A DNA stretch of 64,000 bases from assembly GCA_036001225.1 (NCBI GenBank), contig DASYUM010000308.1, positions 540-64,539 on the forward strand, read 5' to 3'. The position numbers and the translations under genes were made by a program. Under the pieces are notes generated by a model. That model was not told the origin of the DNA. It did not search any database and was given only the letters and a program-made list of their open reading frames with translations. Below are positions 5,328 to 64,000 of this stretch, in pieces. Positions within the stretch are counted from its first letter, which is position 1. Each line of letters opens with the position of its first letter. The stretch is from Candidatus Methylomirabilota bacterium. Its GTDB lineage: Bacteria > Methylomirabilota > Methylomirabilia > Rokubacteriales > DASRDR01.

Positions 5328-6552
5328 GGGGCCGCTCCGCGTCCTCATCACGGGCATTGGCAGCGTCAGCGCGCTCGGCGTCGGCGGCGCCGCCACGCTG
5401 ACCGCCGCCCTGGCTCGAGGAGCCTCCGGAATCCGGGCCGTCCGCGGCTTCGATACCGACGGGGCCGGTAGCCACCTGGGCGCGGAGGTCGAGGACCTCA
5501 GCCCGCACCTCGGCCCGGAGGAGGTCCGGCGGCTGGCCCGCGCCAGCCAGCTTGCTGTCATCGCCTGCCGGCTGGCCGTCGCCGACGCCGGTGTCGAGCC
5601 GCGGGGGCTGCCCGGGTTGGGCCTGGTGCTGGGCTCGGCGTACGGCGACTTCCGGTCGTCCGAGGCGTTCGCGCGCGGCTATCTCGGCCGGGGGCCGCTC
5701 GGGCTCTCGCCCGTCCTCTTCCCCAACACCGTGATGAACGCGATGGCGGCCCAGGCCGCGATCGCGGTCGGCGCCCAGGGGCCGATGCTGACGCTGAACC
5801 AGGACGCCATCGCCGGCGAGCTCGCGGTGGCCCGGGCCGCCCAGCTGATCGCGACCGGCCGCGCGCCGGCAGCGCTGGCCGGGGGGGTGGACGAGCTGTG
5901 CCCCGTTCTCTACCACGAGCTGGCTCGCCTCGGGACCAGCTCGCCGCGCGGGCACGGAGCCGAGGGGTGCTGGCCCTTCGATCGCCGCGCCAACGGGACG
6001 GTCCTGGGCGAGGGCGCGACGATCGTGGTCCTGGAGGCGGCCTCCAGCGCCCTGGCGCGCGGGGCCCGCGTCTATGCCGAGTTGGCCGGGGTCGCCACCG
6101 GGAACCTGCCCGCGGCCCCCCACGGCTTCCCGGCCCGCCGCCGCCGCGATCCGGTGGTGATCCGGCGCGCGTTGGCCCGGGCCCGGCTCGCCGCCGCCGA
6201 CGTGGACGCCGTCTACTGCACGGGGACCGGCGATCCCGCCGGAGACCGGTGCGAGCTGGACCTGATGGGCGCGGTATTCGAGGGGGCGCCCCGGGCGCGG
6301 CCGCTGCTGAGTGCCCTGACCCCGCTTGCCGGCGAACACGGCGGGCTGGGCGCGCTTCGCGTCGCCGCCGCCGCGACCGCGGTGGCCGGGGGCCCGCTGC
6401 CCGGCCTGCCGGACCTGGAGAGACCGGTGCGGCCGGACTGGGCCTTCGCGACCGGCGCGCCCCGCTCGTTGCCCGGCGCGGGGGCGATCATGGTCCACGG
6501 GCTGGCGCGAGGCGGTGGCCACGCCGCGCTCGTCTTGACGCGAGCCGCCTGA
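5317..6552 (+). CDS. KS-like/CLF-like protein with Gln in place of the active-site Cys (LNQDAIAG); catalytic His residues absent
   Basis: 411 aa. Its start overlaps the KS stop. It has thiolase-fold similarity, but Cys is replaced (NQD), HGTGT is replaced by YCTGTGD, and there is no GH motif. This is the KSbeta/CLF signature. Confidence 0.65.
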   Translation: MAAEGPLRVLITGIGSVSALGVGGAATLTAALARGASGIRAVRGFDTDGAGSHLGAEVEDLSPHLGPEEVRRLARASQLAVIACRLAVADAGVEPRGLPGLGLVLGSAYGDFRSSEAFARGYLGRGPLGLSPVLFPNTVMNAMAAQAAIAVGAQGPMLTLNQDAIAGELAVARAAQLIATGRAPAALAGGVDELCPVLYHELARLGTSSPRGHGAEGCWPFDRRANGTVLGEGATIVVLEAASSALARGARVYAELAGVATGNLPAAPHGFPARRRRDPVVIRRALARARLAAADVDAVYCTGTGDPAGDRCELDLMGAVFEGAPRARPLLSALTPLAGEHGGLGALRVAAAATAVAGGPLPGLPDLERPVRPDWAFATGAPRSLPGAGAIMVHGLARGGGHAALVLTRAA

Positions 6553-7307
6553 TGCCGCGCCTCGTCGCCGTCGTGCCGGTGTTCAACGAGGCGGCCACCG
6601 TCCCCGGCGTCGTGCGGCGGCTGGGCAAGCTCTGTCCGGTGATCGTGGTGGACGACGCGTCGACCGACGGCAGCGGCGCCGGCGCGGCCGCCGCGGGCGC
6701 CCGCGTCGTCCGCCTGCCGGCCCGCGGCGGCAAGGGGGCCGCCCTCCGGCTGGGCTTCGCGGAGGCGCTTCGGGCCGGTGCCGACGGGGTGGCGACCCTC
6801 GACGGCGACGGCCAGCACGACCCGGCCGAATTGCCACGCCTGATCGCCGCCGGCCGGCGCGTCCCCGAGGCGCTCGTCGTCGGCGACCGGCTCGGCGGAC
6901 TCGGCGACCGCATCCCGCGTGCGCGCCTCGCCGCCATCCGGATCGCCGACCGTTGGCTCGGCTGGCTCACGGGGATGCCGCTGCGCGACACCCAGTGCGG
7001 CTTTCGGCTCTACCCGGCAGTCTTTCTGCGGGCGGCTCGCCTGCGCGAAGAAGGCTTCGTGCTCGAGAGCGAAGCCCTCGTCGAAGCCGCCCGCCGCGGC
7101 TTCCCGCTGGTGTCGGTGCCGCTGCGGGCGATCTATCCGCCGGGGCGGGCCAGCCGCTTCCGCGGGCTCGCCGACGGCCTGCGGATCGGCCGCTATCTCG
7201 CCCGCGAGGTCGTGCGGGAGGCGGCGCGGCGGATCGCCGTCGAGCCGCGCGGCCGCCGCGTCCGGGTGGCCTGGCCACTGCCCGATGCCAGAGGCGGCGG
7301 TGGCTGA
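6552..7307 (+). CDS. Family 2 glycosyltransferase (DPM1/polyprenol-phosphate sugar transferase-like)
   Basis: ATG at 6552 overlaps the upstream TGA by 1 nt. Motifs VVPVFNEA...VVDDASTDGS...DGDGQHDP (DxD) are typical of GT2_2 / Dpm1-like enzymes. Confidence 0.75.
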   Translation: MPRLVAVVPVFNEAATVPGVVRRLGKLCPVIVVDDASTDGSGAGAAAAGARVVRLPARGGKGAALRLGFAEALRAGADGVATLDGDGQHDPAELPRLIAAGRRVPEALVVGDRLGGLGDRIPRARLAAIRIADRWLGWLTGMPLRDTQCGFRLYPAVFLRAARLREEGFVLESEALVEAARRGFPLVSVPLRAIYPPGRASRFRGLADGLRIGRYLAREVVREAARRIAVEPRGRRVRVAWPLPDARGGGG

Positions 7308-60656: not shown

Positions 60657-60679
60657 CCCGCTCCTCCTCGAACATCAAA

Positions 60680-60717
60680 AGCCGAGCGGCGGGCTCCTCG
60701 GCCCGCATCGCTCGGCT
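60680..60717 (-). terminator. Intrinsic terminator: 9-bp stem AGCCGAGCG...CGCTCGGCT followed on the minus strand by TTTTGATGTT
   Basis: Seen in the sequence, between the zinc-ribbon gene and the sulfite reductase gene. Confidence 0.5.
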
Positions 60718-60760: not shown

Positions 60761-60970
60761 TCAGGCCGTGTACCGGAGTGGCACCTCCACCCACGCTTTG
60801 CAGCGCGGACACTTGGCGGTGGCGTGGCCGGTGCGGCTCACGCGCAGGATGGCGTTCCGCACCACGACCCCCTCGTCGTCGGCGACCACGATCTTCGTCC
60901 GGCAGACGGGGCAGCGCCGGAGCGCGGCGGGAGTCCCGTCCTGGCCCTGGGCCGCGGGCTGGGGCGCCAT
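60761..60970 (-). CDS. Small zinc-ribbon protein (69 aa, CPVC...CPRC)
   Basis: Four Cys in two CxxC pairs. ATG with AAAGG upstream. Located downstream of trpG. Confidence 0.4.
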   Translation of the reverse strand: MAPQPAAQGQDGTPAALRRCPVCRTKIVVADDEGVVVRNAILRVSRTGHATAKCPRCKAWVEVPLRYTA

Positions 60971-61002
60971 GGCCCCGAACCTACCTTTGTCTATCGGGAT
61001 TG

Positions 61003-61579
<577 letters not shown>

Positions 61580-61599
<20 letters not shown>

Positions 61600-63070
61600 C
61601 GTGCCCTCCCGCCCGCTCGATCGCCTTGAGGACGCCCCGAGCCTTGGCCAGGCACTCCTGATGCTCCAGCGAAGGGACCGAGTCGTAGACGATTCCGGCG
61701 CCCGCCTGCACGTACGCGACGCCCCCCTGGACGAGGACGGTGCGGATGGTGATGCCGGTGTTCAGCGCGCCATCGAATCCGACGTAGCCCACGGCCCCGG
61801 CGTAGGGGCCCCGGGCCACCGGCTCGAGCTCGTCGATGATCTCCATGGCGCGCACCTTCGGCGCGCCGGACACGGTCCCGTGCGGGAACACGGCCTGCAG
61901 GACGTCCCAGGCCCCGCGCCCCGGCGCCAGGTCGCCTTCGACGTGGGAGACGAGGTGCATCACGTGCGAGTAGCGCTCGATCGCCATCAGCTCCGTCACC
62001 CGGACGCTTCCATAGCGCGCGACCCGCCCGATGTCGTTCCGCGTGAGATCGACGAGCATCACGTGCTCGGCGCGCTCCTTCGGATCGGCGAGGAGCGCGT
62101 CGGCCAGCGCCTGGTCCTCGGCGCCAGTGCGACCGCGGGGGCGGGTGCCGGCCAGCGGACGCATGTCCACCCGCCCCTCCTCCAGGCGGACCAGGCGCTC
62201 GGGCGAGGAGCCGACGAGCGTGCCCGCCCCCGTGTCCAGGAGGAACATGTAGGGAGACGGGTTCAGGACGCGCAGGGCGCGGTAGATGGCGAGCGGGTCC
62301 ATGCCGGGCACCGGCGTGGCGAAGCGCTGGGCGAGGATGACCTGGTAGATGTCGCCGGCCCGGATGTACTCCTGAGCCCGCTCGACGCCGGCGCAGTACG
62401 CCTCCGGCGTCACGTTCGACCGGGGCTCGACCGGCAGCGGGGGGGCGGCGGGCTGGAGTGGCCTCGGTCCCTCCAGGCGCGCGAGCAACGCCTCGATCCG
62501 CTCCCGCGCCCGCCGGTAGGCGGTCTCGGCGCCGTCGTCGAGGAAGGCGTTGGCGACCACCCGGAGCGTGTGGCGACGATGGTCGAAGACGACGACAGTG
62601 TCCACGAGCGCCAGCCGAAAGACCGGCATGCCGACGTCATCCGGCGGCCGGGCCGGGAGCCGTTCCCAGAGACGGACCGCGTCGTAGCCGAGGTAGCCGA
62701 GGAAGCCGCCGACGAACGGGGGGAGGTCGGGGCGAGTCTCGCCGCGGTAGCGGCCGATGTAATCGCGGACGACGGCGAGCGGCTCGCCCGGCTCGGTGAC
62801 CGTGCCCGACGGACCCGTGACCTGCACGCGCGCGCCGTCGCATTCGAGGACCAGCCGCGGGTCCCCGCCGAGAACGGAGAAGCGCGCCACCTGGGCGGAA
62901 CCCTCGACGCTCTCGAGGAGAAACCGCGAGGGGAGGCCCGCCAGCTTCATGTAGGCGGAAATCGGCGTCTCCAGGTCGGCCAGCAGCTCGCACGAGACGG
63001 GCACGACGTTGGCCGGCCCGCGATGACGCAGGAACTCGCTCGCGGTCGGCTCCAGCACGAGAGCGGGCAT
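61580..63070 (-). CDS. trpE: Anthranilate synthase component I
   Basis: TrpE blocks LLESVEG, the Trp-feedback region, and [20 protein letters not shown]. The ATG at 63068-63070 has an AGGAGG RBS. The upstream in-frame TTG at 63088 lies inside the attenuator U-tract. Confidence 0.9.
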
Positions 63071-63084
63071 GAGCCCCTCCTGTT

Positions 63085-63135
63085 CCAAAAACGAAAGAGC
63101 CGAGGTCGGCGGGACCGTCCCGCTCGCCTCGGCTC
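63085..63135 (-). terminator. trp attenuator terminator: imperfect 18-bp stem followed by UUUCGUUUUUGG, immediately 5' of the trpE RBS
   Basis: Seen in the sequence on the minus strand. Confidence 0.6.
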
Positions 63136-63161
63136 TCTGACTCTCGTCGGTTACGTCTGCG

Positions 63162-63278
63162 CTACGCGGGCCCGGTCCCCTCGCTCCAGTGGGCGCACCA
63201 CCAGCGCCACAGCCAGGCCTGCCGTGACCACAGGCGGGCCGGCTGTCTCAACTGCGCCTGCTCGGGAACCAGCACCAT
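63162..63278 (-). CDS. trpL: trp operon leader peptide (38 aa, 7 Trp codons: ...RLWSRQAWLWRWWCAHWSEG...)
   Basis: A small ORF between the promoter and the attenuator hairpin. Trp codons cluster at residues 17-31. The ATG lies at most a few nt from the predicted transcription start, so it is leaderless or nearly leaderless. Confidence 0.6.
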   Translation of the reverse strand: MVLVPEQAQLRQPARLWSRQAWLWRWWCAHWSEGTGPA

Positions 63279-63287
63279 GATGGCGGA

Positions 63288-63317
63288 ACAGTAGTCCGGG
63301 CGAGGGTGGCTTGTCAA
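63288..63317 (-). promoter_or_regulatory. Putative trp promoter, -35 TTGACA / 18-nt spacer / -10 TACTGT
   Basis: The hexamers are seen on the minus strand. The -35 overlaps the stop codon of the upstream aldehyde dehydrogenase gene. Confidence 0.45.
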
Positions 63318-64000
63318 GACAGGTCGACCCAGACGCTCTTGACTTCCGTGTACAGGTCCATGCCGGCCTGGCCCAGCTCCCGTCCGAACCCCGACTCCTT
63401 GAAGCCGCCGAAGGGGAGAGCGGCATCGTAGAGGTTGTAGGCGTTGACCCACACGGTGCCGGCCCGGATGGCCCGGGCGGCGCGCAGCGCCTTGCCCACG
63501 TCCCGGGTCCAGACGGCGGCGGCCAGCCCGTAGAAAGTATCGTTGCCATGGGCGATCCCCTCGTCCACGTCCTTGAACGGGATCACCGAGAGCACGGGCC
63601 CGAAGATCTCCTCGCGAGCGATCTTCATGGCGTTGGTCACGCCGGTGAAGATCGTGGGCTGGAGGAAGAAGCCCTTGCCGTTCCCGACGCTGGCCCGCTC
63701 CCCGCCGGCCACCACCCGCGCGCCCTCCTTGCGGCCGGCCTCGATGTAGCTCATGACCGTGTCGAGTTGCTGCCGGGAGACGACCGGGCCCATCCGGGTC
63801 GCCTTGTCGAGAGGATCGCCGACCTTCAGCCCCTTGACGCGCTCGGTGAGCTTGCCCACGAACTCGTCGTGGACGCGCTCCTCCAGGAGCAGGCGGGAGC
63901 CCGCCGCGCAGACCTCGCCCTTGTTGTAGAAGATCCCGGTCAGAGCGCCCCGCACCGCCGCTTCCAGATCGGCGTCGGCGAAGACGATGTTGGGCGACTT
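63314..64000 (-). CDS. Aldehyde dehydrogenase family protein, 5' part outside the window
   Basis: C-terminal ALDH blocks GEVCAAGSRLL (catalytic Cys), EEIFGPV, and GGFKESGFGRE. Confidence 0.8.
   Translation of the reverse strand, partial: KSPNIVFADADLEAAVRGALTGIFYNKGEVCAAGSRLLLEERVHDEFVGKLTERVKGLKVGDPLDKATRMGPVVSRQQLDTVMSYIEAGRKEGARVVAGGERASVGNGKGFFLQPTIFTGVTNAMKIAREEIFGPVLSVIPFKDVDEGIAHGNDTFYGLAAAVWTRDVGKALRAARAIRAGTVWVNAYNLYDAALPFGGFKESGFGRELGQAGMDLYTEVKSVWVDLS

Follow-up and report, generated by a model that had tools for sequence, protein, structure and literature searches.

A probable ribosome-mediated leader-peptide attenuator with a predicted, nearly leaderless mRNA in front of trpE-trpG in Methylomirabilota

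A ribosome-mediated leader-peptide attenuator most probably ties the expression of the trpE-trpG operon to charged tRNA-Trp in a Candidatus Methylomirabilota bacterium. The element was found on the minus strand of a 64,000-nucleotide (nt) stretch of contig DASYUM010000308.1 (assembly GCA_036001225.1), which is referred to here in its full length as the window, and it combines a promoter, a leader open reading frame (ORF) rich in tryptophan (Trp) codons, two alternative RNA pairings and an intrinsic terminator located in front of trpE. The initial annotation, made from the sequence alone, had proposed a classical attenuator of this type, and this proposal is supported by the leader, the terminator, both alternative pairings and the placement of the stop codon over 19 loci. 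From this anatomy we infer the switching-off of trpE-trpG by plentiful Trp, the Trp response, the translation of the ORF and the efficiency of termination. Leader-peptide attenuation of trp genes is textbook knowledge, and the element described here is a new family of a known mechanism, not a new mechanism.

The following features make up the element and the operon; all positions are window coordinates on the minus strand, and the coding, promoter and terminator anatomy was read from 62900-63500.

63312..63317, minus strand: -35 hexamer TTGACA, identified from the sequence and kept in the family
63288..63293, minus strand: -10 hexamer TACTGT (TAnnnT type), 18 nt after the -35 box
63279..63281, minus strand: predicted 3-nt 5' untranslated region (UTR; AUC), from promoter geometry
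63162..63278, minus strand: leader-peptide ORF of 38 codons plus TAG, encoding MVLVPEQAQLRQPARLWSRQAWLWRWWCAHWSEGTGPA, with homologous ORFs in 18 other loci
63186..63230, minus strand: putative regulatory Trp codon block (W17, W22, W24, W26, W27, W31)
63188..63193, minus strand: region 1, predicted 5' strand of the anti-antiterminator, CCCACU, just 3' of W27
63166..63179, minus strand: region 2, predicted 5' strand of the antiterminator, GGGACCG-gg-CCCGC, in the last five sense codons
63111..63123, minus strand: core of region 3, predicted 3' strand of the antiterminator, GCGGG-a-CGGUCCC
63096..63136, minus strand: intrinsic terminator hairpin AGAGCCGAGGCGAGCGGGACGGUCCCGCCGACCUCGGCUCU, from folding (-33.4 kcal/mol) and the RNAalifold consensus
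63087..63098, minus strand: U-tract UCUUUCGUUUUU
63076..63081, minus strand: Shine-Dalgarno sequence of trpE, AGGAGG
61580..63070, minus strand: trpE, anthranilate synthase component I, 496 amino acids, ATG at 63070-63068 (Pfam Anth_synt_I_N and Chorismate_bind)
61003..61599, minus strand: trpG, glutamine amidotransferase component (Pfam GATase), overlapping the end of trpE by 20 nt

The comparative evidence comes from a set of 19 distinct loci, namely, the window and 18 others, to which one copy carrying a 1-nt frameshift (L122) is added. The TrpE of the window is identical to HEV8676614.1, a 496-residue protein from a Methylomirabilota metagenome-assembled genome (MAG), and close TrpE relatives were recovered at 69-86% identity through protein homologues and the contigs that encode them. 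Metagenomes were also scanned for a DNA pattern based on the conserved core of the leader; of the 37 matches, 13 were true family members and 24 were chance matches without a leader. Among the matches listed in a scan of a genome collection with TrpE were loci of about 50% identity from other phyla. In L122 (an ERZ1370068 contig) the -35 box reads CTGACA, and owing to a 1-nt deletion the Trp codons and the conserved stop are in different frames; this copy may represent an assembly error or a decaying attenuator.

The leader ORF extends from an ATG at 63278-63276 to a TAG at 63164-63162. Its 38 codons include Trp at positions 17, 22, 24, 26, 27 and 31, exactly as first described; the "seven Trp" in the title of the initial annotation is wrong, since six Trp codons were counted. 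In the family as a whole the leader ORFs comprise 24-38 codons with 3-6 Trp, a core of the type W-x-W-R-W-W-(C/R), in which W22 and W27 are invariant, and a C-terminus conserved as ...G-P-A/S-V. The N-termini are unrelated among family members, and the two Trp positions are the sole invariant residues. Variable N-termini together with fixed Trp residues form the pattern that would be expected of a sensor ORF and not of a functional protein.

A second line of evidence is the fixed geometry of the promoter relative to this ORF. The order TTGACA-18-TACTGT, read initially on the minus strand, is borne out at 63317-63288, and a TTGAC(A/G) -35 box is present in at least 18 of the 19 loci. The -10 boxes of the relatives occur at the same offset and read TACTGT, TAAGGT, TAGAGT, TACCGT, TAACGT, TATTGT or a TAAGGT-like sequence, with a spacer of 17-18 nt between both boxes (18 nt in the window). 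The leader ATG follows the -10 box after 9-10 nt in 19 of 19 loci (9 nt in the window) and lies, again in all of them, 38-40 nt from the first T of the -35 box. Arrangements of the type TTGACA-N16-19-TAnnnT-N5-11-RTG occur twice in the 64 kb of the window, as compared to 0.01 expected. A C-A step situated 7-8 nt past the -10 box is conserved in the family. Transcription in the window presumably starts 7 nt past the -10 box, at a conserved A (63281), and the 5' UTR is thus predicted to measure about 3-4 nt, not 0. Given that only 9-10 nt separate the -10 box from the ATG, there is no room for a Shine-Dalgarno sequence of the leader. Of the initial wording, "leaderless or nearly leaderless", the second half appears to describe the leader mRNA accurately.

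Downstream of the leader ORF, a 41-nt GC-rich hairpin starts 25 nt past the stop codon and is followed by the U-tract, the AGGAGG and the trpE ATG, in the order that had been claimed. The hairpin was predicted by RNAfold in 19 of 19 leaders and corresponds to the RNAalifold consensus of the 19 sequences, in which 15 pairs are kept and three are changed on both sides; at one position, for example, G-C, A-U and G-U are found. In some relatives the spacer between terminator and trpE (L096 4748-4897; L124 849-973) contains GC-rich direct repeats, ..CCAGTAGGCCGCCGCGTCCCG..GGCCCGAGGCGCGCCGGCCGAG.., spaced by about 56-78 nt. Similar sequence is present in L087, L099 and L105, and is absent from the window.

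The initial annotation had allowed for the case that no alternative antiterminator might be foldable, and such a structure can be folded. When a ribosome was masked at the Trp block and the transcript was cut before the 3' arm of the terminator, the recurrent minimum-energy feature was a pairing of region 2 with region 3, the latter consisting of the upper 5' arm of the terminator, the terminator loop and three further nt at the start of the upper 3' arm. The duplex between region 2 and the top of the terminator has energies of -20 to -30 kcal/mol in 19 of 19 loci (-28.6 in the window), which is 0.6-2.7 standard deviations (mostly 1-2.7) below the shuffle mean. A pairing as strong as that in the window was seen in 2 of 300 dinucleotide shuffles and in 5 of 600 genomic 24-mers, and among sliding 20-mers the segment starting at -15/-16 from the stop was the single best partner in 13 of the 19 loci. 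For transcripts ending before the lower 3' arm, the probability of the CCCGC:GCGGG helix is at least 0.87 in 17 of 19 loci. In a hand-built, N-padded alignment, 95.7% of the antiterminator cells are paired, compared to 33-57% in slid controls. One compensatory change, from A-U to G-C, is seen in L086 and another, from G-C to C-G, in both L087 and L093; the partnering base is part of the terminator loop. U-A and C-G pairs that look like compensations in L084 and L098 were not counted, since RNAduplex prefers another register. Together, the modelling points to an antiterminator that is foldable in all loci and would be mutually exclusive with the terminator.

The other alternative pairing would sequester region 2. 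Region 1, which reads CCCUCU in most relatives, pairs with the run of G residues at the start of region 2 (AGGGG, 63181-63177), and the Trp codons themselves pair with CCCGCGU, offering a second way of sequestering this region. In the nested 1:2 structure 80.6% of cells are paired, as compared to 28-60% in slid controls, and none of 500 shuffles reached this value; the structure was derived from one member, so that this test is somewhat lenient. In the window a single nucleotide lies between region 2 and the UAG, with an equivalent placement in all loci, and a ribosome at the stop codon is thus modelled to cover region 2 entirely. The last conserved Trp codon, W27, precedes the stop by 36 nt in the window and by the same distance in most loci, and therefore a ribosome stalled there would cover region 1 and not region 2. 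As modelled, this arrangement fits the classical four-region logic.

In the proposed mechanism, transcription would start about 3 nt before the leader AUG, and the leader would be translated without a Shine-Dalgarno sequence. With plentiful Trp, the ribosome would reach the UAG and cover region 2, that is, the last five codons, while the polymerase makes the terminator 26-75 nt downstream; the hairpin of -33 kcal/mol and the U-tract would then form, and transcription would end before trpE. When Trp is scarce, the ribosome would stall at W24-W27, covering the Trp codons and the C-rich region 1, and the free region 2 would pair with the upper 5' arm and the loop of the terminator upon their emergence. 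The lower stem could then not close, and the polymerase would continue into trpE-trpG. If the leader were not translated at all, region 1 would pair with region 2 and the terminator would form, so that the default state would be off.

The conserved C-terminus of the leader peptide invites a different explanation, according to which the leader is a TnaC-like arrest peptide that senses free tryptophan in the ribosome and not the charging of tRNA-Trp. TnaC relies on a conserved Trp together with a C-terminal Pro, and the family leaders are unusually long and share both the W-x-W-R-W-W core and the ...G-P-A/S-V ending. However, the conservation of this ending is at the nucleotide level and complementary to the top of the terminator, and as RNA complementarity accounts for it, an arrest peptide is unnecessary. 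Stalling at the stop would moreover cover region 2 and favour termination only, a logic that is workable for a biosynthetic operon yet needs no cluster of Trp codons, and the leader ends in an intrinsic terminator and not in a Rho site. An arrest peptide is therefore considered very unlikely.

The hairpin could also serve the upstream aldehyde dehydrogenase gene (Pfam Aldedh) as an insulator or constitutive terminator, with trpEG expressed by partial read-through and the Trp-rich ORF being either fortuitous or an independent Trp/Arg-rich peptide. The TGA stop of the aldehyde dehydrogenase gene falls within the -35 TTGACA, so that transcripts from upstream would meet the hairpin; frames dense in TGG codons are no rarity in the DNA of the window, and peptides rich in Trp and Arg can be bioactive. 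Trans functions are ascribed to the leader peptide of Sinorhizobium meliloti (PMC7298713), which can be counted in the same direction. Against this stands that the module is kept upstream of trpE despite differing upstream genes, that the spacing between promoter and ATG is fixed and the Trp residues are invariant whereas the remaining peptide is free to vary, and that conserved alternative pairings join the Trp codons, the stop-proximal codons and the terminator. A constitutive terminator is thus an improbable explanation, albeit somewhat less so than an arrest peptide.

Control of the terminator in trans, by a TRAP-like protein, by a T-box that reads uncharged tRNA-Trp or by a riboswitch, appears extremely improbable. 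Several GAG triplets are present within the leader, and Bacillus (PMC3064811) and many Firmicutes regulate their trp genes through control of this kind. However, TRAP needs 9-11 (G/U)AG repeats, and the longest chain of (G/U)AG triplets with 1-4 nt spacers has four members in the window and one to five in the relatives. A search of window positions 62000-64000 with relaxed filters gave no match at E <= 10 to any Rfam family, including RF00513 (Trp_leader) and T-box. T-box and TRAP were rejected on the basis of the missing Rfam match and (G/U)AG array, and control in trans leaves the in-frame Trp codons and the fixed distances of ATG and stop unexplained.

Several observations weigh against a ribosome-mediated attenuator or against single parts of it. 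The -10 box TACTGT agrees with TATAAT at only three of six positions, and for this reason, and because the terminator stem is bulged, a simple consensus scanner missed both the promoter and the terminator; its criteria were too strict, and folding and comparative data were therefore used instead. A 5' UTR of the predicted 3-4 nt is not strictly leaderless. In the window, which has a GC content of 72%, 214 of 127,774 38-codon frames (0.17%) hold at least six TGG codons. Trp-codon density as stand-alone proof was dropped, since it is too common in off-frames of GC-rich DNA, and the case for the leader ORF rests on position and conservation, not on Trp density.

Further points of this kind concern the antiterminator. 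The 5' arm has an equal or better partner in another leader segment in 6 of 19 loci, and in two loci the helix probability is lower (0.38 and 0.78). The alignment was fitted by hand to the structure and leans towards it, and 61 of 500 shuffles reached the observed paired percentage. Two-sided changes are limited to two pairs and three cells, so that covariation is thin. Compared with the terminated fold, the antiterminated one is less stable by 0-17 kcal/mol, and the switch must therefore be kinetic; energy gaps of this size are typical of kinetically controlled attenuators. Finally, the antiterminator leaves the lower stem of the terminator untouched and does not compete with it directly. In the model, the lower stem would be excluded sterically, as its closure would create a pseudoknot across a helix of 12 base pairs whose loop measures only about 5 nt. 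Sequestration of the lower 5' arm (GCCGAGG) by an antiterminator was considered and rejected, given that no conserved complement is present upstream.

The genomic context of the element is that of a two-gene operon. The initial annotation had preferred the ATG at 63068-63070 to an "annotated" TTG as the start of trpE. The ATG holds, and the public protein HEV8676614.1 already begins there; the TTG at 63088-63086, which is made of the last two residues of the U-tract and the next G, is merely the start of the longest ORF and not an annotated one. trpE is found downstream of the leader wherever the contig reaches it, as is trpG wherever the contig extends that far. The leader module is kept behind quite different upstream genes, including divergent ones. 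TrpD, TrpC, TrpF, TrpB and TrpA queries, taken from a Paenibacillus locus and confirmed by Pfam, gave no tblastn match in the window or in the flanks of any relative. The view of the operon as trpE-trpG without trpDCBA thus agrees with the window, and the two-gene arrangement is kept in the lineage. The next TrpE clade (60-64% identity, Armatimonadota and others) sits in an aroF-tyrA-trpE-G-D-C-trpS operon and has neither an upstream intergenic space nor a leader. The leader module therefore appears to be lineage specific, which supports the attenuator reading. In L088, a fragment or gene of a class-I tRNA synthetase of the W/Y family (Pfam tRNA-synt_1b; 6132-6842) directly follows trpG, and the attenuator of this locus may also control a Trp/Tyr-tRNA synthetase paralogue.

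Several known systems offer parallels. The enterobacterial trpL (RF00513; Yanofsky 1981) likewise has a short ORF with clustered Trp followed by Arg (...GWWRTS in E. coli, ...WRWWC/R here), four RNA regions with 1:2, 2:3 and 3:4 alternatives, a stop codon at which the terminating ribosome blocks region 2, and an intrinsic terminator before trpE. It differs in lacking any homology in sequence or structure (no Rfam match), in having 14 codons with two Trp instead of 24-38 codons with 3-6 Trp, and in an antiterminator that uses the whole 5' arm, whereas the upper arm and the loop are used here; moreover, the leader ORF here is without a Shine-Dalgarno sequence and the controlled operon is limited to trpEG. 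In S. meliloti, the trpL-trpE(G) attenuator also controls the anthranilate synthase gene(s) only, and the remaining trp genes are in other operons without a leader ORF (PMC6614838). However, the S. meliloti leader peptide has 14 amino acids (10.1101/606483), trpE and trpG are fused, and the released attenuator RNA and peptide act in trans. That a released RNA or peptide of the Methylomirabilota attenuator acts in trans on unlinked trpDCFBA genes, by analogy, is conceivable but improbable.

A likeness for the start of the leader is offered by the trpEGD leader of Deinococcus deserti, where translation of a trp leader peptide begins at the very 5' end of an mRNA that lacks a Shine-Dalgarno sequence for it, the transcription start site lying 1 nt upstream of the start codon (PMC4007540). 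There the start site was determined by differential RNA sequencing (dRNA-seq), whereas here it is deduced and a UTR of 3-4 nt is predicted; D. deserti belongs to another phylum, its operon includes trpD, and the comparison covers the arrangement of the leader. Sensor ORFs rich in the cognate residue also precede biosynthetic genes in Corynebacterium (trp MTNMNAHNWWWRA, with a shared WWWR motif; leaderless ilvB leader; PMC5784534), and the mycobacterial polycysteine upstream ORFs (10.1101/834739) are short, often leaderless sensor ORFs of high-GC bacteria. Both belong to other phyla and have unrelated RNA, and the mycobacterial Cys ORFs control Cys genes. The Bacillus subtilis TRAP system (PMC3064811) shares competing antiterminator and terminator structures before trpE, but is protein mediated through 11 (G/U)AG repeats and has no leader-peptide logic.

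Upstream regions of trpE in other phyla (L001 at about 2540-2700, L013, L008, L022, L028/L029, L042/L074), from Syntrophales/Smithella, Binataceae-like bacteria and unclassified MAGs, were found to contain unrelated Trp leader peptides and terminators, with MIKTLNLNNWWWWNLTGRLIRR and MNLSSRNVCAGWWRWHLDAPACAPAL as example peptides. Their Trp motifs are WWWW in the Syntrophales-type loci, SWLWRWC in L008 and WWRW in L028 and L029, and in the latter two the ATG is 39 nt from a TTGACA. Leader-peptide attenuation of trp genes, sometimes near-leaderless, is thus probably far more widespread than curated families suggest.

To our knowledge, the Methylomirabilota are an abundant uncultured soil phylum with essentially no characterised gene regulation, and a literature search retrieved no paper linking Rokubacteria or Methylomirabilota with leader peptides or attenuators. 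The probable attenuator would extend classical ribosome-mediated attenuation to this Rokubacteria-type lineage and would define a coherent family of cis-regulatory RNAs and leader peptides, with 19 distinct members, that is missing from Rfam and from gene calls. It also corrects the annotation of these loci with respect to the leader ORF, the trpE start and the two-gene trpEG operon, and it would be a compact example of attenuation necessarily coupled to Shine-Dalgarno-independent, near-leaderless initiation.

Downstream of trpG, three additional features precede the sulfite reductase gene.

60968-61006, minus strand: predicted promoter TTGACA-N17-TAGGTT-N7-ATG of a zinc-ribbon ORF
60761-60970, minus strand: 69-amino-acid Cys4 zinc-ribbon ORF (CPVC...CPRC), after trpG
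60668-60716, minus strand: second terminator-like hairpin, GCCGAGCGAUGCGGGCC..GCCCGCCGCUCGGCUUUUGAUGUU, directly before the Shine-Dalgarno sequence and ATG (60656) of sulfite reductase

The initial annotation had closed the trp operon with a zinc-ribbon ORF and a terminator. Both are present, but the ORF has its own promoter and groups with the sulfite-reductase genes. The trpG stop codon lies inside the -35 box of this promoter, mirroring the arrangement at the trp leader, and the ATG is 7 nt after the -10 box, which is the canonical leaderless spacing. Conservation extends to the promoter spacer, CCCGATAGACAAAGG, a possible operator. Zinc-ribbon Pfam matches of the 69-residue protein are sub-threshold only; the protein is strongly conserved in L082, L085 and L086, and the ORF was found only where sulfite-reductase/sirohaem genes follow, not tracking trpEG. 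Judging from this distribution, the ORF belongs with the sulfite-reductase genes and not with trp. A role as an anti-TRAP-like trp regulator was rejected on the same grounds.

There is no room for a promoter before sulfite reductase, and expression of the sulfite reductase/sirohaem genes would therefore need read-through of the second hairpin, which may be a second regulated terminator. No convincing conserved antiterminator was found for it. The only recurrent partner of its 5' arm precedes the stop by about 170 nt, immediately ahead of the first Cys codons, a position that does not fit the logic of stalling. It is conceivable, though doubtful, that the Trp attenuator and the zinc-ribbon/sulfite-reductase region are two tandem regulated modules on one scaffold, each of which may consist of a perfect promoter with a -35 box overlapping the upstream stop, a leaderless or near-leaderless short ORF, a related terminator and biosynthetic genes. 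If so, the second module would represent a new type of regulated terminator, acting in sulfur or cysteine assimilation, and its zinc-ribbon ORF, which codes for a real protein, would either double as the sensor or encode the regulator. The second terminator is related in sequence to that of the trp attenuator, and both may share a scaffold of the form GCCGAG..GCGGG..CCCGC..CUCGGCU; counterparts of the second terminator are present in L082 (6397-6437), L085 (6366-6407) and L086 (6358-6400).

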